From assembly GCF_029227855.1 (NCBI RefSeq), contig NZ_CP074356.1: DNA of 64,000 bases. One strand, given 5' to 3'. The position numbers were made by a program, and so were the translations under genes. This document shows, piece by piece, positions 1-56,393 of this stretch. Under the pieces are notes generated by a model. That model worked only from the letters and a program-made list of their open reading frames with translations. It did no database searches and was not told where the DNA came from. The stretch's first letter is position 1; each line of letters begins with the position of its first letter. Source of the stretch: Escherichia coli (GTDB lineage: Bacteria > Pseudomonadota > Gammaproteobacteria > Enterobacterales > Enterobacteriaceae).

Positions 1-1
1 C

Positions 2-2974
2 GCTGCGGACCGGATCATCCGCTGGTCCGATAACGACCAGACGTGGAGCCGTTTCACCTACGATGAACAGGGCCGGTGCGTGAATGTCACCGGGGCGGAG
101 GGCTATTACAACGCCACGCTGGACTATGGTGACGGCTGCACCACCGTGACGGACGGCAAGGGCATTCACCGTTATTACTATGATCCTGACGGCAATATTC
201 TGCGGGAAGCAGCGCCGGACGGCAGCACCACCACGTATGAATGGGATGAATTCCATCACCTGCTGGCCCGTCACTCCCCTGCCGGGCGGGTGGAGAAATT
301 TGAATACAACGCCGCACACGGTCAGTTAAGCCGTTACACGGCGGCAGACGGCGCGGAGTGGCAGTACCGCTATGATGAGCGCGGCCTGCTCAGCAACATC
401 ACCGACCCTGCCGGGCAGACGTGGACACAGCAGTGTGATGAACGCGGCCTGCCGGTAAGTCTGGTGTCGCCACAGGGCGAAGAGACCCGGCTGGCATACA
501 CCGCTCAGGGGCTGCTGTCGGGAATATTCCGCCAGGATGAACGGCGTCTGGGCATAGAGTACGACCACCACAACCGGCCGGAAACACTCACCGACGTGAT
601 GGGCCGTGAACACCACACCGAATACAGCGGTCACGACCTGCCGGTGAAGATGCGCGGCCCCGGCGGTCAGTCAGTGCGGTTGCAGTGGCAGCAGCACCAT
701 AAACTGAGTGGCCTTGAGCGCACTGGCACCGGCGCGGAAGGGTTCAGCTATGACCGCCACGGCAACCTGCTGGCCTGGACGGACGGCAATGGTGTTGTCT
801 GGACAATGGAGTACGGCCCGTTCGATTTGCCGGTGGCGCGAACGGACGGTGAAGGCCACCGCTGGCAGTACCGCTATGATAAAGACACGCTGCAACTGAC
901 AGAAGTCATTAACCCGCAGGGTGAGTCATATCTTTATGTTCTGGATAACTGCGGCCGGGTGACGGAAGAGCATGACTGGGGCGGCGTGGTCTGGCGTTAC
1001 CGCTATGACGCCGATGGCCTGTGTACCGCCAGGGTCAACGGCCTGGAGGAAACCATCCTCTACAGCCGGGACGACGCAGGCCGCCTGGCAGAAGTCATCA
1101 CGCCGGAAGGCAAAACGCAGTATGCGTATGACAAATCCGGCAGGCTGACGGGTATCTTCAGCCCGGACGGCACATCACAGCGCACCGGCTATGACGAACG
1201 CGGGCGGGTGAATGTCACCACTCAGGGCCGACGGGCCATTGAATACCACTACCCCGATGAACACACCGTCATCCGCTGTATCCTGCCACCGGAAGATGAA
1301 CGCGACAGACACCCCGGTGAATCCCTGCTGAAAACCACGTACCGCTACAACGCAGCCGGAGAACTGGCAGAGGTCATCCTGCCGGAGGATGAGACGCTGA
1401 CGTTCAGCCGTGATGAGGCAGGACGTGAAGTGCTCCGGCACAGTAACCGGGGTTTTGCCTGTGAGCAGGGCTGGAATGCAGCCGGTCAGCTTACCAGCCA
1501 GCGCGCCGGACTTTTCCCGGCAGAAGCCACATGGGGCGGGCTGCTCCCCTCACTGGTACGGGAGTACCGTTACGACAGCGCGGGCAATGTGTCGGCTGTC
1601 ACCAGCCGGGAAGATTACGGACGGGAAACTCGCCGGGAGTACCGGCTGGACCGGAACGGCCAGGTCACGGCGGTGACAGCCTCAGGCACCGGGCTGGGCT
1701 ATGGCGAAGGCGATGAGTCCTATGGCTATGACAGTTGTGGCTACCTGAAGGCGCAGTCTGCGGGCAGGCACCGGATAAGTGAAGAGACTGAGCGGTATGC
1801 CGGAGGCCACCGGCTGAAACAGGCCGGAAACACGCAGTATGACTATGACGCCGCAGGCCGGATGGTCAGCCGCACCAGACACCGTAACGGCTATCGCCCG
1901 GAAACAGAGCGGTTCCGGTGGGACAGCCGGGACCAGCTGACCGGGTATTGCAGCGCACAGGGTGAACAGTGGGAATACCGCCACGACGCCAGCGGCAGAC
2001 GGACGGAAAAACGCTGCGACCGGAAGAAAATCCGCTTCACGTACCTGTGGGACGGCGACAGTATTGCGGAAATCCGGGAATACCGCGATGATAAACTGTA
2101 CAGCGTAAGGCACCTGGTGTTTAACGGCTTTGAGCTGATAAGCCAGCAGTTTAGCCGGGTACGGCAGCCGCACCCGTCCGTGGCCCCGCAGTGGGTGACG
2201 CGGACGAATCATGCGGTGAGCGATCTGACGGGCCGTCCGCTGATGCTCTTTAACAGTGAAGGTAAAACCGTCTGGCGACCGGGACAGACCAGCCTGTGGG
2301 GGCTGGCACTCAGCCTGCCCGCGGACACCGGCTACCCGGACCCGCGCGGGGAACTGGACGCGGAAGCCGACCCCGGCCTGCTGTATGCAGGACAGTGGCA
2401 GGATGCGGAATCCGGGCTGTGCTATAACCGGTTCCGGTATTACGAGCCGGAAACAGGGATGTACCTGGTGAGTGATCCGCTGGGGTTGCTGGGGGGTGAG
2501 CAGACTTACCGGTATGTGCCGAATCCGTGTGGGTATGTTGATCCTTTGGGATTAGCAACATGTCCCATAATCAGACAACGGGTGCTGGCTAACCTTGAAG
2601 CCAGTCGGGCAGCAAGGGCTGCATCTAATTTTGGTAAGAAAAATATCTATGATTTTATCAAGGCAACTCAATCTGCTATCCCTGGCACCTCTATCCCAAA
2701 ATCTTTTGAGATTATAACTGCTAATGGTACTTTCTGGGTACACCCAAATGCTACAAAACATATGGCTGAATATTTGACTCGGAACGGTCTCTCACATTCA
2801 ACTTCTGTAGAGAGCCAAATAATGTTAACAAGTTTTCACGAAGCTGTAAGTTTGGCTAGTGCTCAAGGTATAAAGTATGAAGAAATGATGAATGTTGGCG
2901 GCTGGGAACTAGTATTTAGTCAAGCTAAATCTGACTCGGCTTTATCAGTTATTAAACATGCTCTTTATAAATGA
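2..2974 (+). CDS. Rhs-family polymorphic toxin, 5'-truncated by the window edge; YD-repeat core ending in a DPLGL motif, then a ~140-aa C-terminal toxin domain of unassigned family
   Basis: The reading frame is open from position 2 to the stop at 2974. Repeated YDxxGR(L/V) motifs run throughout, and the core ends with RYYEPETGMYLVSDPLGL...YVDPLGL followed by a lower-GC extension (ATCPIIRQ...KHALYK). Confidence 0.85.
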   Translation, partial: AADRIIRWSDNDQTWSRFTYDEQGRCVNVTGAEGYYNATLDYGDGCTTVTDGKGIHRYYYDPDGNILREAAPDGSTTTYEWDEFHHLLARHSPAGRVEKFEYNAAHGQLSRYTAADGAEWQYRYDERGLLSNITDPAGQTWTQQCDERGLPVSLVSPQGEETRLAYTAQGLLSGIFRQDERRLGIEYDHHNRPETLTDVMGREHHTEYSGHDLPVKMRGPGGQSVRLQWQQHHKLSGLERTGTGAEGFSYDRHGNLLAWTDGNGVVWTMEYGPFDLPVARTDGEGHRWQYRYDKDTLQLTEVINPQGESYLYVLDNCGRVTEEHDWGGVVWRYRYDADGLCTARVNGLEETILYSRDDAGRLAEVITPEGKTQYAYDKSGRLTGIFSPDGTSQRTGYDERGRVNVTTQGRRAIEYHYPDEHTVIRCILPPEDERDRHPGESLLKTTYRYNAAGELAEVILPEDETLTFSRDEAGREVLRHSNRGFACEQGWNAAGQLTSQRAGLFPAEATWGGLLPSLVREYRYDSAGNVSAVTSREDYGRETRREYRLDRNGQVTAVTASGTGLGYGEGDESYGYDSCGYLKAQSAGRHRISEETERYAGGHRLKQAGNTQYDYDAAGRMVSRTRHRNGYRPETERFRWDSRDQLTGYCSAQGEQWEYRHDASGRRTEKRCDRKKIRFTYLWDGDSIAEIREYRDDKLYSVRHLVFNGFELISQQFSRVRQPHPSVAPQWVTRTNHAVSDLTGRPLMLFNSEGKTVWRPGQTSLWGLALSLPADTGYPDPRGELDAEADPGLLYAGQWQDAESGLCYNRFRYYEPETGMYLVSDPLGLLGGEQTYRYVPNPCGYVDPLGLATCPIIRQRVLANLEASRAARAASNFGKKNIYDFIKATQSAIPGTSIPKSFEIITANGTFWVHPNATKHMAEYLTRNGLSHSTSVESQIMLTSFHEAVSLASAQGIKYEEMMNVGGWELVFSQAKSDSALSVIKHALYK

Positions 2975-3504
2975 CGATTATGCTTACATTAGAAAATGAA
3001 ACAAACTACAAAGATGTTGTTGTTAATATAGATGAATTTGTACCTTTTGATATAACTTTTGGAAAGGGGAGCGAACAGTGTTTGTACTGGAGAGGCGGCA
3101 ATGGTAAAAGTTCTTTGGTTGAAGTTGGGTTAAATATGTACAGCGGAGAAGTAAGTAACATCACACTAGCAAATATCGATTCAGGTGAAATTAACATTAC
3201 AGATGAGATGTTAGCCAACAACCTTCCTGAAATACAAGGGTCTGTTATATTTCAGACAAGCGAGTGGCTTAATAAAGACATTTCCGAATACTCAAACAGA
3301 TTTATTGATGATTTTGATTGCAATATCAAGTTAATAATTGGTAGTAATTACATTAAATTATTATTTAAAAAAGCAACAAATCCCATTTGTTATATCATTA
3401 ATAGGAATATAAGATTTGGTTTTTCTTTGAGTAGGGAACTTTCGACATTGGAAATATTAGACCTCAATCAAGAAAAATTAGATATTCTAAAGTTATTTAA
3501 ATAG
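2971..3504 (+). CDS. Putative cognate immunity protein for the upstream Rhs toxin domain
   Basis: A 177-aa ORF whose ATG overlaps the toxin stop (ATGA at 2971-2974). It is AT-rich and sits immediately downstream of the toxin, the usual toxin-immunity arrangement. Confidence 0.55.
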   Translation: MTIMLTLENETNYKDVVVNIDEFVPFDITFGKGSEQCLYWRGGNGKSSLVEVGLNMYSGEVSNITLANIDSGEINITDEMLANNLPEIQGSVIFQTSEWLNKDISEYSNRFIDDFDCNIKLIIGSNYIKLLFKKATNPICYIINRNIRFGFSLSRELSTLEILDLNQEKLDILKLFK

Positions 3505-3995
3505 TTTTAGTGTTTGAAACTTACCGAGAGATGATAGCTATGAATGAATACAAAAACATCCATCTTGGAGGAAACAATGGAATGTTAATCCATTAAAAAA
3601 CATACTTCAATATCTTTAGTGAAGAAAGAGTTGTATGAAAGAAATATATCTTATGTGAGCGACATGATGCATGCTAATTATATTATTGGCCGGAAATTTT
3701 ATGATGATAGCAAAAAGGAGGGGTTATTTCTGTAAGAATGGATATACCCGCAGGGTTTGAACCAGACATTTATTTGTTGAAGTCTAAGATCCAAATGGAA
3801 GCATTTATATCCCTCAGATATTATGCGTTGACGGGTTGATAAAGATACTTTTAGAGGGTTAATAAATGGAGAACGTATAATAAATCTCTTAAACAAACTA
3901 TAACCTGTACTAATGAAAAAAATGGGAATAGATAAGTTAATAGCCTATTCTAAAAATGGTAAAGTGGTTTTACTTCCAAAATAATGGAGTTTAGT

Positions 3996-4427
3996 ATGAA
4001 AATCGAAGCTAATTCCCTTACTCATCCCTATGACTACAACGCCTCACTGAACAATTATTTACATTATTTTGAGAATTTCTCTCGTAATGACTGGAATAAA
4101 GATTCATGTGGAGGATATTTTACTTTTAGAGATGATGACAGAGAGTGTGTTTTGTTTTTTGTGAATTATGGTGATAATTTTTCATTGCGCTATGATTGTA
4201 CACAAAGTTCTGATGGAATAGTGTCATGCTGGTATAGTAACCATGAAGATGATAAAATGAATATCATCGTCGATGCTGATACAGAACAATTTATCCCTTT
4301 AGGTTCTTGCTTACCTCCTGATATTACTTTATCAGTAATAAAAGATTTTTTCAAAAATCCTTTAGAGAAATCAAAAAAAGTAAAATGGATGAATGCAGAT
4401 GACATTGACTGGTCATCTGTGTATTAA
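3996..4427 (+). CDS. Hypothetical protein, possible orphan immunity protein
   Basis: An ORF of ~143 aa (from MKIEANS; an upstream ATG at 3984 is also possible) with AT-rich composition, lying in the island downstream of the Rhs toxin. No recognisable catalytic motif. Confidence 0.4.
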   Translation: MKIEANSLTHPYDYNASLNNYLHYFENFSRNDWNKDSCGGYFTFRDDDRECVLFFVNYGDNFSLRYDCTQSSDGIVSCWYSNHEDDKMNIIVDADTEQFIPLGSCLPPDITLSVIKDFFKNPLEKSKKVKWMNADDIDWSSVY

Positions 4428-5289
4428 AGTTGGATTGGATAATTATCTGTTTCAAAAATCATTAAATTTAGAACCTATCTGTTCAACAGAGCTGCCTTGA
4501 ACAGCAGGTTCTTTTATGATGTCCAGGAGCGAATATGCCTGTGATGTCTGGCACTCAGCATCTGACTGACCTGGACTACTGATCCTACTCACACAGGGAG
4601 CTAGACCTGGAAGCAACCTACTGTAAGCAGTGCAGTAGCAGCCCACCTCACATCAGTCCTTGCAAGGTGTGGGCCTTTGTGATCTTGCTCTGTATTGCTG
4701 AGATCCTCAGGAAGGACTCGAAATTTAATCAGGAAGGCCGTTGCTAAAAATCAAAAAATAAATTCAAGAGCAATTTCTAAAACTTTTGAATCTACTGTAT
4801 CGGATGAGGTTTTCACTCCTTTCCAAAAGGTGAGTTTTCAAGCATTCAAGTTTCTGTTATGACCAAAACTTCACCATTTAACACTAATCCGAGTATTATG
4901 TTACCATGAAGAAAAAAGATATTAGATTTGCAATATCCATTAACTCCAACTCAAGTAAGATAGAATTAATGGAAAAATTAAAAACATAATCCCAGGGCTT
5001 ATTGAAATAACTCCCAGTGCATTAAGAGAAGAAAAAACATGGTAGTTATTGAAGATAATGATCTTTATGACTCTATAAAAGCAGAGGGAGTTGATGGATG
5101 GATGTATTATAAATTCATATTATCCATATTCCCATTAAAGGGAGTAGACACAACATTAGAATATCAACGGAAATTATCTTTTCTTTTCTTAAAGAAATTA
5201 AAAGATGCGGGTCTGTTAGGTGAACTTATATGCGAGGATGATTTTCATGACTGATGACCTCTACATATATCCTCAGTTCGTGGCTGGTA

Positions 5290-5631
5290 TTACATGATCT
5301 GACAGGGAAAGATCGTAGCGAAATCAAAAAAGACGTGGATTTCCCGGAAGCCGGTGAAGACACGGCGCTCTGCGACAAGGAGACTAAACCGCCGAGGATA
5401 GCCCAGGGCAGCAGCAACGTTTTTATCAACAATCAGCCTGCCGCACGCCAGGGAGACAAACTGGAGTGCAGTGCGGCGATCGTGGAAGGTTCGCCGGACG
5501 TCTTTATTGGGGGTGAGCAGGTCACCTATCTGGATATCCAGCCGGAGTTCCCGCCGTGGCAGAGAATGATCCTGGGGGGAATAACGATAGCCAGCTATCT
5601 TCTGCCGCCAGCGCAGGGAAAGATCACGTAA
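5290..5631 (+). pseudogene. PAAR-domain fragment, probably the C-terminal part of the N-terminal PAAR region of a T6SS-type Rhs or PAAR protein
   Basis: A GC-rich segment inside the 5254..5631 ORF encodes IAQGSSNVFINNQPAARQGDKLECSAAIVEGSPDVFIGG, matching the PAAR motif pattern. The composition shifts abruptly near 5290, and no credible N-terminus or Rhs core follows. Confidence 0.5.
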
Positions 5632-5700
5632 CGCTGCTTTTTTGTACTAAATAATTCGCACTAAATGTTCAATAATTGAGATATTCCTTATTACCTAAAT
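5614..5700 (+). repeat. Direct repeat copy 1 (~90 bp; cagggaaagatca...tttgtactaaataattcgca...gatattcc.tattacctaaa)
   Basis: About 80% identical by eye to 7645..7738. It lies at the 3' junction of the PAAR fragment. Confidence 0.6.
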
Positions 5701-5750
5701 ACAGTTCCACCAAGATTACCTAAACCCAAATGAGGTAAAAGATAGTGGGT

Positions 5751-6112
5751 ATGAATAAAAATGAAATCCATTTCCCTATAGGATATGGTTGGTTGAATGA
5801 AAAAAAATTATTGGCACCAGTGAATTTAGCCAATTAGAACCATGGTTTTATCTAGATGAGAACAGGTGTTTTTTTGCGAATAAAAAATGGCCAAATGTCA
5901 TAGGTGAACAATTATTCGCTTTTGCTAAACGTCAAGATAATGATGAATTGGCTTGTTTCAAAATTAATGAATCTGGAGTCTGTGAGGGTGTTTATTTAAT
6001 TAATGGGTGGACTCCTAACGGGTTTGATATTATACAATTTTACCCTGATTTTTGGGAATGGGTACATTTGGTTATACAAGATGTCTCGGAGTGGATTGAT
6101 AATAAAGGATAA
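5751..6112 (+). pseudogene. Frameshifted immunity-like gene; any family resemblance (e.g. SMI1/KNR4-like) is tentative
   Basis: ATG at 5751 gives MNKNEIHFPIGYGWLNEKKLLAPVNLAN then a stop. The +1 frame continues KKIIGTSEFSQLEPWFYLDENRCFF...EWIDNKG to 6112. The frame break coincides with an A8 homopolymer near 5803-5810. Confidence 0.35.
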
Positions 6113-6141
6113 TTTGAAACAAAAGTAAAAAACCGCCTTCA

Positions 6142-6840
6142 TTGAAGGTAACGTGGAGTGGTGGGCGGAGCAGCCTGCCCGCAGACACAGACTACCCGGA
6201 CCCGCGCGGGGAGCGGGACGCGGAAGCCGACCCCGGCCTGCTGTATGCAGGACAGTGGCAGGATGCGGAATCCGGACTGTGCTATAACCGGTTCCGGTAT
6301 TACGAGCCGGAAACCGGGATGTACCTGGTGAGTGATCCCCTGGGGTTGCTGGGGGGTGAGCAGACTTACCGGTATGTGCCTAATCCTAGTGGGTATGTTG
6401 ATCCTCTGGGATTAGCAACGTGTCCTATACTCAGACAGTGGGCGCTGACTAACCTTGAAGCCAGTCGGGCAGCAAGGGCTGCATCTAATTTTGGTAAGCC
6501 TCTGGTCCAGCGAAATAAAACGATTGGCGATAAAGTAAGGGATATGATTGCCAAAGAGAGGGGAACCACTCTAATTGAACAAAATTATAGAGTGACAGGA
6601 GGATTAAAGCGTATTGACGTTGTTGATGGAGTAACGGGTATAGAATCTAAAGTCGATCGAACAGGGTTAACAACCCGAGTACGGCAAGAGGTAGCGCGGG
6701 ATATTAAGATTTTGAGAAGTGAGCAACTTGATCAAATTGAATGGGTGTTTACAAGAAGTTCAACTACAGGGAAGATTGGGCCAACTAAACCACTTGAAGA
6801 TCTTTTAAATAAACATGGTATACCGATTATTTATCGATAA
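6142..6840 (+). CDS. Orphan Rhs C-terminal module: core-end repeat (DPLGL) plus an alternative toxin domain, possibly a PD-(D/E)xK-like nuclease
   Basis: Positions ~6176-6500 are near-identical to 2310-2630 (the end of the first Rhs core plus 26 codons). The sequences then diverge into a different C-terminal domain containing RIDVVDGVTGIESKVDRTG. The reported ATG at 6142 is probably not the native start. Confidence 0.7.
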   Translation: MKVTWSGGRSSLPADTDYPDPRGERDAEADPGLLYAGQWQDAESGLCYNRFRYYEPETGMYLVSDPLGLLGGEQTYRYVPNPSGYVDPLGLATCPILRQWALTNLEASRAARAASNFGKPLVQRNKTIGDKVRDMIAKERGTTLIEQNYRVTGGLKRIDVVDGVTGIESKVDRTGLTTRVRQEVARDIKILRSEQLDQIEWVFTRSSTTGKIGPTKPLEDLLNKHGIPIIYR

Positions 6841-6851
6841 GGAGTGATAGT

Positions 6852-7409
6852 GTGAAACTCAAACCGATTGGTGACTTTTTAAACAAAAATGGGTTTATAA
6901 AAAATGGTAACAATGATTTTTATAAAGTTCATGATAAGTTTGTAAATTGTATAAATTTTCAAAAAAAGAGTACAGGTGATATTTTTTTTATAAACACAGG
7001 TGTTCATCCTGTGTTCGAAAATTTTTGCAATGAACCACCGAAAAAAGAAATAGATTGTTACATCCGTAACCGTGTGTGTGATGGACTAAGTATATCTTTG
7101 CTGCATTCTTTTGAAGGTAGTGAGTTTGTTATCAGTGAGATAAAAAACAAAGCGTTTTGTTTTTTTGAATACTTTGATTCATTGAATAAAATATTCGATG
7201 CTATTCGTGTTGTAGATATTGAAGAGAGAAATATTTGCGATGAGCTAAGTGGTGTAAGCAGCGTAAGATTAGCTTTGATGTGTATGAACTACCAGTATGA
7301 GAAAAAAAAATTTAGCCTTGTTTCTGATTTTGCGAACTATGGTCTTGCTATATCTAGAGGCCCGGTACCGAAAAAAGCATTTAAGGATATGATAAAAATA
7401 ACAGAGTGA
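6852..7409 (+). CDS. Putative immunity protein for the orphan Rhs toxin module
   Basis: A 185-aa ORF with a GTG start 12 bp after the toxin stop, preceded by AGGAG at 6841-6845. AT-rich. Confidence 0.5.
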   Translation: MKLKPIGDFLNKNGFIKNGNNDFYKVHDKFVNCINFQKKSTGDIFFINTGVHPVFENFCNEPPKKEIDCYIRNRVCDGLSISLLHSFEGSEFVISEIKNKAFCFFEYFDSLNKIFDAIRVVDIEERNICDELSGVSSVRLALMCMNYQYEKKKFSLVSDFANYGLAISRGPVPKKAFKDMIKITE

Positions 7410-7419
7410 TACCTAATCC

Positions 7420-7650
7420 GGTGTAATACTTGCTGCCTGTGTACCGCGAAGATTAACGGCCGGGAGGAAACTATTCTCTACAACCGGGACGCCACAGGCC
7501 GCCTGGCAGAAGTCATCACGCCGGAAGGCAAAACGCAGTATGCGTATGACAAATCCGGCAGGCTGACGGGTATCTTCAGCCCGGACGACACATCACAGCG
7601 CACCGGCTATGAAGAACGCGGGCGGGTGAATGTCACCACTCAGGGCAGGG
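7420..7650 (+). pseudogene. Internal Rhs core fragment
   Basis: About 215 bp nearly identical to 1021-1230 of the first Rhs core (encoding ...EETILY..RLAEVITPEGKTQYAYDKSGRLTGIFSPD...). Homology is lost at the cagggaaagatca junction. Confidence 0.6.
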
Positions 7651-7738
7651 AAAGATCATCCAAAGTACACTTTTTGTACTAAATAATTCGCATTTTATGT
7701 TTAAAAATGGAGATATTCCTCATTACCTAAAGCTGTTT
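7645..7738 (+). repeat. Direct repeat copy 2 (~90 bp), immediately upstream of the ISAs1-family transposase
   Basis: Matches 5614..5700 in sequence. It may be the left end of the H-repeat element or a recombination scar. Confidence 0.6.
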
Positions 7739-7739
7739 T

Positions 7740-8940
7740 TTATTGCTTATACATGATCAAATACTCCTTACATAATTAAGGAGAACAAAATGGAACTTAA
7801 AAAATTGATGGAACATATTTCTATTATCCCCGATTACAGACAAGCCTGGAAAGTGGAACATAAATTATCGGATATTCTGCTGTTGACTATTTGTGCCGTT
7901 ATTTCGGGTGCAGAAGGCTGGGAAGATATAGAGGATTTTGGGGAAACACATCTCGATTTTTTGAAGCAATATGGTGATTTTGATAATGGTATTCCTGTTC
8001 ACGATACCATCGCCAGAGTTATATCCTGTATCAGTCCTTCAAAATTTCACGAGTGTTTTATTAACTGGATGCGAGATTGCCATACTTCAGATGATAAAGA
8101 CGTCATCGCAATTGATGGAAAAACACTCCGGCATTCTTATGACAAGAGTCGCCGCAAGGGAGCGATTCATGTCATTAGTGCGTTCTCAACAATGCACAGT
8201 CTGGTCATCGGACAGATCAGGACGGATGAGAAATCCAATGAAATTACAGCTATCCCTGAACTTCTTAACATGCTGGATATTAAAGGAAAAATCATCACAA
8301 CTGATGCGATGGGTTGCCAGAAAGATATTGCAGAGAAGATACAAAAACAGGGCGGTGATTATTTATTCGCTGTAAAAGGAAACCAGGGGCGGCTAAATAA
8401 AGCCTTCGAGGAAAAATTTCCGCTGAAAGAATTAAATAATCCAGAGCATGACAGTTACGCCATTAGTGAAAAGAGTCACGGCAGAGAAGAAATCCGTCTT
8501 CATATTGTTTGCGATGTCCCTGATGAACTTATTGATTTCACGTTTGAATGGAAAGGACTGAAGAAATTATGCGTGGCAGTCTCTTTTCGGTCAATAATAG
8601 CAGAACAAAAGAAAGAGCCAGAAATGACGGTCAGATATTATATCAGTTCTGCTGATTTAACCGCAGAGAAGTTCGCCACAGCAATCCGAAACCACTGGCG
8701 CGTGGAGAATAAGCTGCACTGGCGTCTGGACGTGGTAATGAATGAAGACGACTGCAAAATAAGAAGAGGAAACGCCGCAGAATTATTTTCAGGGATACGG
8801 CACATCGCTATTAATATTTTAACGAATGATAAGGTATTCAAGGCAGGGTTAAGACGTAAGATGCGAAAAGCAGCCATGGACAGAAACTATCTCGCGTCAG
8901 TCCTTGCGGGGAGCGGGCTTTCGTAATCTTGCCCTGCGTT
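7740..8940 (+). mobile_element. ISAs1-family (H-repeat) insertion element; boundaries approximate
   Basis: Contains one intact transposase ORF. The terminal inverted repeats could not be delimited by eye. Confidence 0.4.
7790..8926 (+). CDS. ISAs1-family transposase (H-repeat-associated protein; YhhI/YdcC/YbfD-like)
   Basis: A 378-aa ORF ([32 protein letters not shown]...[31 protein letters not shown]) recognised as the H-repeat protein family found inside Rhs elements. Confidence 0.85.
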
Positions 8941-9123
8941 AACCGCCCCTCCTTGACACCACGCTTTTGTCTACATTCTACACAAACGGCAACTTTTATA
9001 ACCAGTGTAAAAATAACGTGCCGCAATAGTCATACCTATTAATGGTAAAAAGCTGTCACAATTCATAAAAAACCTTAATATACGCCACCCTAAACATAAC
9101 CAGCGTTAATGTAAGGTTTTTGT

Positions 9124-51709: not shown

Positions 51710-52201
51710 TTACTCTGCACAAGCATCAGGCAATCCAGCTCCAATATTTGTTATAAAATAATGCGTAACATTAATTTCACCAACAAAAAAAAGGTTTACG
51801 CTATCCCCTTGCCCTGGTATTTTACCATATTTACACCACACTTTTTTTGTATCTGGATCATTCTCTGATACGATTTTCGCCACTTGTTCCCTGGCCCTCA
51901 CCGTCAATGTTTTCTTAAACCTCCCCCCATCATCGATTGTTAGGGAAAAATAAGAAAAAAAATAATCACCTTCTACATTTGTGGATATTGATATATCCAC
52001 CGCTACATGCGGAAAAAAATCTGGGAGCCATGTAAAAACCCCATCACTTTCTGGTATTGCCATATAGTTTATGTAATGCTTACTTACAAGAGATTCATCT
52101 TTGTGTAAATAAAGATAAGTAGTCACGCATAAAAAAACAACGATTATAATAGCAAAAATAAATATTACCATCTTTGAGATGTTACTTGAGATAGCCAGCA
52201 T
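51710..52201 (-). CDS. Putative immunity protein for the rhsD-locus Rhs toxin, with an N-terminal transmembrane helix
   Basis: An AT-rich ORF of 153-163 aa directly downstream of the Rhs stop, overlapping it or separated by ~10 bp depending on the start. Hydrophobic segment [21 protein letters not shown]. Confidence 0.55.
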
Positions 52202-55200
52202 CTTGTAAAGCCTTTATCGTTTTTTTATGCTCTGGATTAATATAATCAATACATCTATTTGAGCAATCTTGTGTTAATGGACATGTCAACCCATGTTCAT
52301 TTACAGCCAAGTCTTTTTTATTATCTTCAATCATCTCAGAATGGGATAACTTTACTTTTCTGCCGTACATACCGAACATATTTAACCCGTAATCTCTAAT
52401 CTCTTTTTCATAACCCAGCCCTTTCGCTGATCGGCTAACACCAGCGTCATTTAATTTAGACACTCGACAAAATGCCATACAATGGAAAAATTGATCAGTC
52501 CCACCTAAATTTAATCTCTTCATATCATCATAAGTATCAGATAATATATCCCATGCTCTTTGATGGTTTAGTTGTTCTTTTTTTCGCATTAACGCTACAT
52601 CTGCAGGACTTAACCCTAATGGATCAATACCATTCACCGGATTCAGCGGATACGCATACAGACTCCATCCCCCCGCCAGCCCAATCGGGTCCTGAGCAAT
52701 ATATCGTCCCAGCAACGGATTGTAGTACCGGTTCCGGTTATAATACAGCCCTGACTCCTCATCGTGTTGCTGCCCTGGCAGACGGTACGGCTGGTGCAGG
52801 TGATGCGGGTTTTCCTCATTCAGCAGGTTTCCCCACTCATCATACTCCCCGCTCCACGCCGTATTGCCGTCTTCGCTGATGAGCGCCAGCGGCAGCCCCC
52901 GGTGGTCACAGTGATAAAGATGAATTTTTCGCTCAGGTAAATAAACCGGCTCTATCTGTGCCGCCAGCCGCTCCACCGTCAGCCCGCACTGTGCCAGCCA
53001 CTGGCGGCTTTCACTGCTCACGCGGTCTGCCCGGATTTCCCCCTCCAGCCTGTCCAGCAGCCGCACCAGTTCAGCCGGGAACACCACGCCGTGTCCGTCC
53101 TCGCTCCCTTCCTGCTGGAGCTTCTCCGCCAGGCTGCGGCGCTGCGCTTTCTCCCGCTCGCCGTTCTCTGTCTCGACCCGGATGAGCGGCGTGAAGCTTC
53201 CCGGCTGGTACACCGTCTGGATACGCGTGGTGTCGGTCTGTACTGTCGCCAGCCTGTCGCCGTCCCACCCGTACCACGTTACCTCCGGTTTACGCGACAG
53301 CGACATCCACCCCGTCAGGTCACGCTCCCGCCGCCATACCCGTTTCGCCATTCGCCATCCCAGCGGGTCGTAGAGGTAGCGGCTCTCGACCAGTGGCTCG
53401 CCATGCTGTATCCGCGTGTAGAACACCAGGCGGTGCTGGCTGTCGTAGTGGTAGTGGTGGGTCCGCTCGTCGTCCGTCCGTATCACACCCGCCGGGATGC
53501 GGTCCGTCTTCTCTGTCAGCCTGCCGTATTCATCGTGGCGGTAGACATAGTGCGCATCCTCCGCGATGCGGTTATCCGGCCACGCCGTGAGTGTACTGTC
53601 CGGGTGCAGCTCCGGGTCCGGCAGCCGGTTGCCCGCCGGGTCCGTGGCATACGGGATGCGGATGTCCAGGTCCGGTGCGAGGGTGCGTACACTCGCCAGC
53701 CTGCCCGTGGCACTGTAGCCGTATTCCCGCGTCTGTCGCGGGCCGCTGATGCGCACAAGGTCGCCGTTGTCATTCCACCCGTAGTCACGGTCATACACCA
53801 GGCTGTTCAGGTGCTGGCTCTGTAACTGGCCTGCAGGGGTGTATGTGCTGGTCAGTTCGTATGCGGCATTACTGCCTGCCATGCTGCCAAAGCTGCGCAC
53901 CGTTTCTCTGTGCAGGCGGTCGCGCGCGTACTCCAGCAGCGGCGTGTCGCCCAGCTTCATGCCCGCCAGATAACCGCTACCGTAGGTCAGCCACTCCACC
54001 GGCGGCAGGCTGTCCGGCGTGACGCGGTTTGCCAGCCCCTGTTCGTTGTATGCCTGTTTCGTCTCATGCTGCCACAGCAGTTCCCCCGTCTCCGGGTTCT
54101 TCACCGTCTGGTGCTCACTGGTCAGACGGCCTTTATCGTCATAGCCGTAGTGGACCGCCACACGGTGGCCTTCGCTCAGGTGGCTGATTTCTCTCAGCCA
54201 GCCGTGGCCATCATACTGCCACTGCTCTGCCGGTTCGCCGTTCACCGTGCGGTGAGTGAGGCGGTCCGATTCGTCGTAGTGCCAGAGGGTGACAAGCCCC
54301 TCATCTTCACTCTGCGTGAGTTTTCCGGTCAGGTCATAATGATAACGTTGCGTCCGCCCGTCAAAGCCGCTCTGCTGTACCAGCCGGTCCAGTGCGTCGT
54401 AACGGAAGGCGCTGTCACTGCCGTTCTCGTTGGTCAGCGTGGCGACACGTCCTGCCGCGTCATACTCCATACTGCGCGTCAGCCCGCCCTGCGTGGTGCT
54501 GACCGCTTTTCCCCACGCATCGTACTGTGTCTCGCTCCGGTTGCCGCCCGGGGTGATAACGGCAGTCAGGTCGCCTGCGGCGTTGTACTCATACTGCGTT
54601 TCACGGCCCTGTGCGTCTTTCACCGAGGTTAACCGGCCACGGTTGTCATAGTGGCGGTAAAGGCTGATGCCTTCCTCGCGGTGGACCGCCGTCATCTGGC
54701 CGAAGCGGTCATACTCATAGCGGGTCTGGTAGCCCGAGCAGTCGGTGAACGCCAGCAACTGACCGTAGCGGCTCCAGGTCATCTGCCGGGTGCTGCCCGT
54801 CGCATCTGTTGTCGTGGCCGGTAATTCACTGTGCGGATTATCATAAGCATACCGGATGACGTCCCCACTGCGCGATGTCTCCGATACCAGCCTGTCCCGC
54901 TCATCATACGCCCGGCGGCTCTCCAGCCCGTCCGGGTACACCACCGCCGTCACCAGGTTCCCGTCGTTATAGTAAAATTTCGTCTCCCGCCCGTCCGGCG
55001 TGGTGATGTCCGTGATGTCGCCTGACACCACATTCAGACCGTACTCTGTCCGCCGTCCCGCCGCGTCCGTCTGCGCCGTAAGCCGCCCCACCGGGTCATA
55101 CCCGCTGCGCGTGACGCTGCCGTCCGCCAGTTCTTTTTTCACCACCCGCTTCAGCCCGGCCCCGCCTTCTGTATGCAGCACCTCACGCCGGTTCAGGCTG

Positions 55201-56393
55201 TCCGTGACGGTGATGCGGTCCTGCTCATACTGGTAGCGGTAACTCAGGCCTGCCGGGTTCAGCTGCTCCACCACCCGCCCCGCATCGTCGTAGCGGTAGC
55301 GCATCTCCGGCCTTCCCGCGTAACGGTGCGCCACCATCCGGCCCGGGTGCTGCGCGTCATACGTGAAAGCGCGCACCTGCGTATTGCTGCGGTCATATAC
55401 CGCCAGCAGTTCACCGGCTTCCGTATACGTGTACCGCACCAGTGGCGCACCGGGCAGGCTCTCCGGGTATGCCGGGTCGTGCATCAGCCACACCGCCGAA
55501 AGACGGATGCCCCTGTCGGGGCCGTATTCGGTACCGGGCAGTGTGTCGGGGAACGCTGAGGCTGAAAGAGGGCGGGGGGTGTCAGGGGAAAATAAGGAAG
55601 CGGTGTGCTGTTTACGGGCCTCTTCCGCCCGCTGCGCCTGCGTGGTCAGCACCAGACGGAACTCCCGCCCGGCACCGTCCGTCACGCCGGTGATTTCCCC
55701 GGCCAGGTCACCGGCGGCCTCACGCCGGTACGTCAGCGTCTGCCCGAAGCGGTCCGCCAGCCCGGTAAGCACCCGGTACGGCGGCAGCGGCGCTGGCAGT
55801 ACGTCCTCAGTGCCCGGCACCCGCTCTGACCACCCCAGTATCCACCACGGTCCCTGTGCGCTGTTGGTCGCCAGGTAAAGATGCGGGCTTAACCGGATAT
55901 CCGGCGGCAGCGACGCCCACAGCCGTGCCAGCGTGTGGCCGTCCGGCTGCGCTGCCTTACCACCGCGAACCAGCCACATTGACTCGCTGCGGCTGTACAC
56001 CGCCCCCCCCGGCAGCAGCGGCTCAAAGTGAATGCTCCGTCCGCCGTTGTCGTTGAGTACCAGTGCATCATCGCGTATCTGTAAGCGGATATCAGAAGGC
56101 GCTTTCCAGCCGGGGCCAAAAATCCCCACCGGCGCAGGCGTCTTCGTCCGGTAGCTGCTGTAGGTGCGGGAGAGAATGAACGGCAGCGGGCCGGGCAGCG
56201 CAAGGTCCGTCTCGCCGGGCAGCACCTTCGCCCCCAGCAGCGGATTTACCGGGTTGCCCGAAGTCATCCTGCCCGGACACACCGAGCACGCCACGCCGGT
56301 GGGCGCGCCAATTCTTACACCTGCCGAACCCTGGACAATGGGACCGCCATACTGAGTCATATCTCCCTGACGCGCCGCTGGTTTTCCGCTCAT
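52182..56393 (-). CDS. Full-length Rhs polymorphic toxin at the K-12 rhsD position, with a Cys/His-rich C-terminal toxin domain of unassigned family
   Basis: 1403 aa with a PAAR-like N-terminus [33 protein letters not shown], extensive YD repeats, a DPIGL...DPLGL core end, then a ~145-aa tail with a compositional drop. It lies next to ybbP, as rhsD does in K-12. Confidence 0.9.

Follow-up and report, generated by a model that had tools for sequence, protein, structure and literature searches.

A type VI secretion Rhs effector island with displaced toxin-immunity cassettes between cusS and nfrB of Escherichia coli

Introduction

The site between nfrB and cusS on the Escherichia coli chromosome has been described as Rhs locus 4, a conserved site and the single locus of clade IV in this species (Jackson et al. 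2009, BMC Genomics 10:584, PMC2935791, Table 3), and it has been used as an example of the displacement of C-terminal tips, together with a core fragment that lacks a tip and lies downstream (PMC2935791, Fig. 5). The corresponding island of strain EDL933 is composed of z0707 (vgrG1), z0706 (eagR), z0705 (rhsF) and z0702 (rhsG) (PMC7216683), and VgrGO1 and EagR are required for Rhs C-terminal toxins (Rhs-CT) to be delivered by T6SS2, a type VI secretion system (T6SS), according to Ma et al. (2017, Environ Microbiol 19:345) as cited in PMC6730261 and PMC7216683. That orphan Rhs modules consist of a toxin and its immunity partner has been demonstrated by Poole et al. (2011, PMC3150448). Among toxins carried by other scaffolds, CdiA-CT EC869 is a BECR-fold tRNase whose structure has been solved (PDB 7VMC; PMC9071432). 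Here, these systems are compared with a locus found at the beginning of a 64,000-nucleotide stretch of E. coli DNA (RefSeq assembly GCF_029227855.1, contig NZ_CP074356.1; hereafter the window), in which the 3' part of an rhs gene, a series of toxin and immunity genes, fragments of rhs and an ISAs1-family insertion sequence (IS) lie directly upstream of nfrB.

Positions 1-8982 of the window are the distal two thirds of an approximately 14-kb 'orphan vgrG island' between cusS and nfrB, seen in many E. coli. It is an already described and very common T6SS effector island, functional in appearance. The whole is, with high probability, best explained as a vgrG-eagR-prePAAR-PAAR-Rhs-immunity effector island in which displaced cassettes, terminated by ISAs1, follow the immunity gene. 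A previous sequence-only reading had considered the locus a strain-specific island at a site normally free of Rhs elements. All the parts that it listed were found again, in place, by means of open reading frame (ORF) list, translation and family scans, and its small ORFs proved to be immunity genes or relics of them; its view of the site as unusual did not hold.

The main rhs gene and its toxin tip

The first 9,200 bases of the window were compared with E. coli JNEC-KY178 (NZ_AP045174.1), with which they are collinear and show no differences, a further 24 kb of the window matching at 100%; the other relative employed was strain GN02461. The main gene and its partner comprise the following features.

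1-2974, + strand: final 2.97 kb (3' part) of main rhs, coding for residues 620-1609 of a 1,609-residue prePAAR-PAAR-Rhs effector (YD-repeat shell, Rhs-associated core and toxin tip)
2474-2554, + strand: DPLGL-x17-DPLGL motif at the end of the core, read from the sequence and its translation
2555-2974, + strand: attached tip of 139 residues (CT1), with a 28-residue linker (2555-2638) and then a predicted BECR-fold tRNase domain (about 2591-2971)
2971-3504, + strand (annotated start 2980): rhsI1, cognate immunity gene of CT1, homolog of CdiI EC869 (7vmc_C, E 3.4e-18)

The main rhs gene keeps an uninterrupted frame from base 2 to 2974, and in the identical sequence of JNEC-KY178 the gene is annotated intact (4,830 bp, 1,609 codons). 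YD repeats are recognized in 9 stretches (TIGR01643, 3.3e-62) together with the Rhs-associated core (TIGR03696, 9e-18), and a tblastn search with the full-length Rhs protein of GN02461 returned 99% identity across residues 620-1609. The motif at 2474-2554 corresponds to the core end as defined by Jackson 2009 (PMC2935791) and Poole 2011 (PMC3150448) and, by analogy with other Rhs proteins, would be the site of C-terminal autoproteolysis; a second copy of this type is present in an orphan rhs fragment of the array, and TIGR03696 matches main gene and orphan alike. At the tip of the main gene the G+C content drops from about 0.62 to about 0.30, as would be expected at a passage from conserved core to foreign tip. 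The traits of an Rhs/YD-repeat polymorphic toxin are all found, namely the YD shell, the core-end motif followed by a variable tip and the adjacent immunity gene. The model of the K-12-type (clade I) RHS core, NF041261, reached 148 bits against a cut-off of 2000, a failure that agrees with the assignment of the locus to clade IV by Jackson.

CT1, which matched no family in a Pfam scan, aligns with CdiA-CT EC869 (PDB chain 7vmc_B, E 8e-41, chain residues 181-306). It keeps His216 and His281, the candidate catalytic histidines of this toxin, and is identical at all five of its EF-Tu contacts (Tyr220, Leu221, Gln235, Met237 and Tyr284), the residue list being that of PMC9071432 with a numbering offset of 21 deduced from the chain length (306 vs 285). 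On the basis of this alignment, we assign CT1 to the CdiA-CT EC869-type BECR tRNase family and predict, with moderate confidence, that its mechanism is the same, that is to say, that of an EF-Tu/Ts-dependent tRNase. The ORF of rhsI1 overlaps or abuts the rhs stop codon.

Upstream genes and the secretion system

In JNEC-KY178 and GN02461, the genes leading into the main rhs gene are, in order, cusR, cusS, vgrG, a gene for a DcrB/DUF1795 protein and the full rhs. In particular, the VgrG protein of the JNEC-KY178 island is recognized by TIGR03361 (626 bits) and its chaperone (Eag, DUF1795/DcrB) by PF08786 (4.8e-26), while the N-terminus of its Rhs protein carries prePAAR_I (PF25799, 6.5e-05), a split PAAR domain (PF05488, 4.3e-10), DUF6531, the motif AARLGDEIQH and hydrophobic helices. 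All the marks of a class I prePAAR effector (prePAAR motif, transmembrane helices, PAAR domain, Eag gene and vgrG upstream, complete T6SS) are thus found outside the window, in JNEC-KY178. The T6SS effector context that a PAAR fragment had suggested is borne out by the vgrG gene, the Eag/DUF1795 gene and the prePAAR-PAAR N-terminus located just upstream in this identical genome. Of the genes to be looked for in an upstream extension, the Rhs N-terminus with its PAAR domain and vgrG are there, whereas tss and hcp genes are absent from the immediate neighbourhood of the island. The complete T6SS of JNEC-KY178 is encoded at aspV, about 400 kb from the island, with tssA, B, C, E, F, G, H, J, K and M, a DotU-family tssL (annotated icmH), two hcp genes and vgrG; a clade-I Rhs element is also present at this aspV locus.

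Genomic location and distribution of the island

In K-12, cusS abuts nfrB and no island is present, so that the island is accessory, as had been recognized. About 14.0 kb of island replace 24 bp of K-12, the replaced stretch beginning 14 nt ahead of the stop codon of K-12 cusS, and homology resumes at window position 8983, 141 bp before nfrB, in a blastn comparison of the K-12 junction with the window. The right-hand limits are the following.

8937-8982, no strand: right edge of the island, the K-12-shared sequence upstream of nfrB starting at 8983 (blastn)
9124: start of nfrB (NF008411, 1333 bits)

On the left side, the 3' end of cusS is altered in genomes with the island: similarity to K-12 is lost 14 nt before the K-12 stop codon (5101-5140 of the JNEC-KY178 comparison stretch), and their CusS protein has 482 residues versus 480 in K-12. 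The border of the island is consequently located within the coding frame of cusS.

How often the junction is occupied was counted in 5,426 complete E. coli genomes, the comparison set for all the junction and arrangement counts reported here. The cusS-to-vgrG junction is found in 2,632 of them, including O157:H7 and, as a remnant, C41(DE3), and the uninterrupted K-12 cusS-nfrB junction in 2,328. The idea of cusS-nfrB as an odd Rhs site has consequently to be corrected, as roughly half of the complete genomes are occupied there. The exact 9.2-kb arrangement of the window is present in 114 genomes, and the CT1 module in 135. Other strains carry different tips at the same locus, and the orphan immunity gene of the window is a cognate partner there. 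A literature search for vgrG, cusS and Rhs together gave nothing relevant.

Some observations concern the surroundings of the island. A second Rhs element occupies 51710-56393 (- strand) of the window, between ybbP and mnmH, which is the K-12 rhsD position (locus 3 of Jackson); it consists of a 1,403-residue clade-I 'RHS element core protein' ORF at 52182-56393 (- strand) and a YbbD-family ORF at 51710-52201. Within 15395-17153, envY, tRNA-Arg(tct) (16201-16277) and fimZ are adjacent, and from this adjacency the DLP12 prophage, next to envY in K-12, is absent from the strain. Outside the window, JNEC-KY178 has an AbiEii/AbiEi toxin-antitoxin pair beside an RNA-directed DNA polymerase gene (16938-22150 of the comparison stretch), the latter overlapping a carbon-nitrogen hydrolase gene, with an integrase remnant at tRNA-Thr adjoining; this region looks like a small defence islet.

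The array of displaced cassettes

Downstream of rhsI1 the island contains the following features, up to its right edge.

3903-3984, + strand: last 82 nt of a displaced MafB19-like deaminase tip, homology to strain GB089 starting at 3903, within the 3' end of the full-length GB089 rhs
3984-4427, + strand (annotated start 3996, 143 residues): orphan immunity gene, cognate to the deaminase tip; in GB089 the corresponding gene comes immediately after the deaminase-tipped rhs at this locus
4647-4692, + strand: 46-nt relic resembling the ISAs1 right end, with 78% identity to this end of the complete IS (8891-8936)
5039-5254, + strand: 71-residue ORF, hypothetical in relatives, just upstream of the PAAR fragment
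5314-5613, + strand: PAAR-domain fragment, copy of rhs residues 240-339 (NF033420, 1e-08)
5614-5699, + strand: ISAs1 left-end relic, sharing 81% identity with this end of the complete IS (7646-7731), cutting the PAAR fragment at its 3' side
5751-6112, + strand: frameshifted orphan immunity-like gene (120 residues when intact), with one A lost from an A9 run at 5800-5807 relative to GN02461
6142-6840, + strand: orphan rhs 3' fragment with tip CT2, a homology block (6171-6498) followed by a predicted PD-(D/E)xK toxin domain (6499-6837)
6852-7409, + strand: CT2 immunity gene, DUF4304 (PF14137, 4.8e-09), beginning 11 nt after the CT2 stop
7435-7646, + strand: tipless rhs core fragment, residues 959-1036, 94% identical to 1017-1228 and confirmed by tblastn, ended by the ISAs1 insertion
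7646-8936, + strand: intact ISAs1-family element (H-repeat/ISEc1-like, 1,291 bp) with deduced boundaries; transposase ORF 7790-8926

In Pfam and NCBIfam scans of both tips and all small ORFs, only DUF4304 matched. CT2 shows an E...D...ExK signature whose residues (E27, D40, E49 and K51) do not vary among 36 diverse homologs, and its AlphaFold model is confident (predicted local distance difference test score, pLDDT, 95.6) and has the alpha-beta-beta-beta-alpha-beta core of restriction-endonuclease-like folds, the closest folds being AF1548 and NucS rather than the PD-(D/E)xK toxins of known structure. Searches of Pfam with the CT2 query and the 36 homologs gave no Tox-REase match, the sole weak hit being DpnII-MboI (2.7e-03, one sequence), and PDB sequence searches with CT2 and with a profile of the 36 sequences matched no solved chain. 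A HMMER scan recovered the domain in 547 representative clusters; in 131 of 133 homologs it stands at the C-terminal end of the carrier, which ranges from about 110 to 3,630 residues. Judging from signature and predicted fold, CT2 is a putative nuclease-fold toxin of a widespread family that has no Pfam model.

We tentatively propose, at somewhat less than even chances, that CT2 (6499-6837) and its DUF4304 partner form an experimentally uncharacterised toxin-immunity family, in which a compact PD-(D/E)xK domain of about 110 residues is carried by Rhs, CdiA-sized and other proteins across phyla. A full-text literature search for DUF4304, alone or with Rhs, found no paper mentioning it. As an orphan, CT2 is a complete tip, presumably promoterless, that is without an N-terminus and has no evident means of export. 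The CT2 module was found in 114 of the complete genomes, and in strain WL297 it stands on a 413-residue rhs stump directly after cusS, an arrangement that fits with CT2 being the older tip at this locus. The sequence of the DUF4304 immunity protein is identical in the window and GN02461.

As regards the immunity genes that have lost their toxins, the rhs tip of GB089 at the same locus belongs to MafB19-deam (PF14437, 6.6e-14), and since the window ORF is the next gene there, the ORF at 3984-4427 is the immunity partner of a deaminase tip; the remainder of this tip is, according to the alignment, deleted in the window. The ORF is intact in the window and has a nonsense codon in GN02461. In the alignment with GN02461, the gene at 5751-6112 is an intact frame of 120 codons in the latter; its UniRef cluster is named SMI1/KNR4 family, and homologs occur 2 bp after an Rhs tip in Segetibacter (54% identical) and next to T6SS genes, within arrays composed of SUKH and DUF4284 members (62% identical). 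In the Segetibacter sp. Rhs-type protein encoded upstream of that homolog, the tip follows a DPIGL...DVWGL motif (1-1030 of the comparison stretch), and this toxin-immunity pair could name the toxin once neutralised by the E. coli 5751-6112 orphan. The pattern of decay is reversed between the two lineages: GN02461 has its main rhs interrupted by a stop and the deaminase-partner gene by a nonsense codon, with an intact SMI1/KNR4-like gene (22000-22974 and 23996-24286 of the comparison stretch), and the window has the opposite. The 71-residue ORF at 5039-5254 matched no NCBIfam or Pfam family; a short ORF and stop codons lie just upstream of it, and it may represent the remaining end of a small gene that has decayed.

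Repeat searching added the two IS-end relics (4647-4692 and 5614-5699) to the parts previously listed. With these, the PAAR fragment and the core fragment can both be recognized as pieces of rhs cut at an ISAs1 left end. The former is 98% (tblastn) or 97% (blastn) identical to the N-terminal region of the main gene. An apparent 1.1-kb insertion in JNEC-KY178 relative to the window was rejected, the two-piece match arising from the PAAR fragment, which matches the main gene's own PAAR region. More of the degraded ISAs1 copy was sought in 3505-5320, where only the 46-nt end was found. The transposase of the intact element spans the whole NF033564 profile (417 bits, positions 1-314 of 314); its termini are CAGGG...CCCTG, with imperfect inverted repeats (13/30 positions), so that this trait of the family is weakly developed, and a repeat search for inverted repeats with a minimum length of 25 in 1-9200 found none.

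Proposed mechanism and tip switching

The steps proposed here derive from the families involved and follow the standard account for class I prePAAR Rhs effectors. The Eag chaperone would shield the N-terminal transmembrane helices of the Rhs protein and aid its loading onto VgrG, whose spike would be capped by the PAAR domain. The aspV T6SS would then fire the complex into neighbouring bacteria, where the C-terminal tip would be freed from the Rhs shell at the DPLGL motif. Once released, CT1 would most likely dock on domain II of EF-Tu and cleave the acceptor stem of particular tRNAs, while the CdiI-like protein encoded at 2971-3504 would keep the producer safe. The array behind it is best read as a record of earlier tip replacements and ISAs1 insertions, and the retained immunity genes could protect against kin still firing those toxins.

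Main gene and orphan share a 328-nt block (2311-2638 and 6171-6498) that is 94% identical, within which stretches of perfect identity reach about 60 nt. RecA recombination across this block could re-arm the orphan CT2 and delete 3,860 bp, a step modelled on work on other orphan modules (PMC3150448). The homology (2555-2638 and 6415-6498) continues for about 84 nt past the second DPLGL, through a shared 28-residue linker (ATCPI.RQ...NLEASRAARAASNFGK), and the same linker precedes the same toxin in a Salmonella homolog. Consequently, the exchangeable unit at this locus starts after the linker and not at DPxGL.

Alternative explanations

Had the locus been a K-12-type Rhs element misplaced beside nfrB, or a chimeric join at about 9000-9124, the island would be an artefact of assembly. 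Repeats of rhs and ISAs1 are, in principle, able to confuse an assembler, but no support for such an error was found. The IS, the 46 island bases and the nfrB junction recur in 114 independent complete genomes that carry the same 9.2 kb at 80% coverage or more, the core scores far below the K-12-type cut-off, and the true rhsD-position element is found separately at 52182-56393. The shared order in 114 genomes together with this separate element excludes mis-assembly, for which we see practically no chance. That the island is instead a strain-specific, undescribed one, with new toxin-immunity functions at a normally Rhs-free site, is largely refuted and very improbable. It would accommodate the empty K-12 site, the restriction of the exact arrangement to 114 genomes and the fact that CT1, CT2 and four small ORFs are without Pfam match. 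Against it stand the identity of the site with Rhs locus 4 and with the EDL933 vgrG1-eagR-rhsF island, the occupied junctions in 2,632 genomes versus 2,328 of K-12 type, and a sequence already present in RefSeq with zero differences. The expectation of undescribed functions fails for the CT1 pair, which belongs with the solved CdiA-CT/CdiI EC869 family, and for the orphan partner of a MafB19-like deaminase; it survives for the orphan PD-(D/E)xK/DUF4304 pair only, which has no named or characterised family.

A more serious competitor, although still an unlikely one, is that the island is a silent fossil, unused in the strain, in which all the cassettes, main rhs included, are decaying remnants. 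It would account for the frameshift in 5751-6112, the cut PAAR and core fragments and the IS relics, and E. coli T6SSs are often repressed in vitro (PMC13141884). On the other hand, the main rhs frame is open and annotated intact over 1,609 codons, and intact copies are present of vgrG, eagR, the CT1 immunity gene, the entire T6SS cluster and the DUF4304 and deaminase-partner immunity genes. Several points weigh against the preferred reading as an effector island as well. The main rhs gene of GN02461 carries an internal stop, which is also what a fossil would show, and from which it follows that the island decays in some lineages. Within CT1, Arg271 of CdiA-CT EC869, whose mutation lowered toxicity, is replaced by Ala with an adjacent Lys, and Arg263 by Gly, both on the tRNA-binding surface, and substrate choice or activity may consequently differ. 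In CT2, a G-to-A change at 6656, the one base by which it differs from GN02461, turns a near-invariant Gly directly after ExK into Asp (G172D), again in line with decay, and Lys stands at a near-invariant Arg in window and GN02461 alike. The window copy of CT2 may be inactive; the two substitutions suggest relaxed selection on a silent toxin, whose decay may be under way although the immunity gene is retained. CT2 may act on either DNA or tRNA, as PD-(D/E)xK toxins can be DNases or tRNases. Furthermore, we infer that the aspV T6SS, and not another system, serves the island, and its expression, secretion and toxicity are proposed from sequence and literature.

Comparison with known systems

For a T6SS effector island with displaced cassettes, the importance of these results is slight beyond annotation. 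They give specific identities, open to test, to cassettes whose RefSeq names are 'hypothetical' or the misleading 'RNA-binding protein': a putative EF-Tu-dependent tRNase with its immunity gene, a deaminase-partner immunity gene, an SMI1/KNR4-like relic and a predicted PD-(D/E)xK nuclease with DUF4304. A loose end of some value is the widespread, unnamed CT2/DUF4304 family. PD-(D/E)xK toxins of known structure, such as CdiA-CTo11 EC869 (4G6U), TseT/Tox-REase-5 (7DYM, 9OZ0) and CdiA-CT YPIII (4ZQU), have no sequence match to CT2, which differs from them also in having DUF4304 as immunity partner.

With CdiA-CT/CdiI EC869, the CT1 pair shares a homologous toxin domain, both histidines, the five EF-Tu contacts and a homologous immunity protein. 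CT1, however, is mounted on a T6SS Rhs scaffold instead of a type V CdiA filament, and is without the CdiA entry domain. Moreover, the match between the rhsI1 product and CdiI EC869 is far weaker than that between the toxins, which makes cross-protection doubtful.

At the level of the whole locus, the window resembles locus 4 of Jackson in its flanking genes, its non-clade-I core and the tipless core fragment downstream, as well as in the GC-poor array of dissociated tips, each behind a copy of the hyperconserved core end. It differs in the combination of tips, with an EC869-type tRNase attached and a PD-(D/E)xK domain orphaned, the tips drawn in Fig. 5 standing outside this comparison. The vgrG1/vgrGO1-eagR-rhs-ct island of EDL933 and other Shiga toxin-producing and enterohaemorrhagic E. 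coli has the same order of vgrG, DUF1795 chaperone, PAAR-Rhs with variable toxin, immunity gene and orphan rhs fragments, and it occupies the same chromosomal site, O157:H7 genomes matching the cusS-to-vgrG junction. For sister islands of this kind, secretion and killing that depend on the T6SS, VgrG and Eag have been reported by Ma et al. 2017, as cited in PMC6730261. The tips of EDL933 are different, rhsF being of unknown type and rhsG having a metallopeptidase-4 domain; Rhs-CT1 to CT10 of Ma et al. stand outside the comparison. Finally, like the promoterless orphan cassettes of Poole (PMC3150448), the CT2 cassette is a toxin/immunity module downstream of a full gene and keeps a stretch of core that allows recombination; unlike in those cassettes, the shared block of the window runs about 84 nt past DPxGL, into the linker common to both tips.

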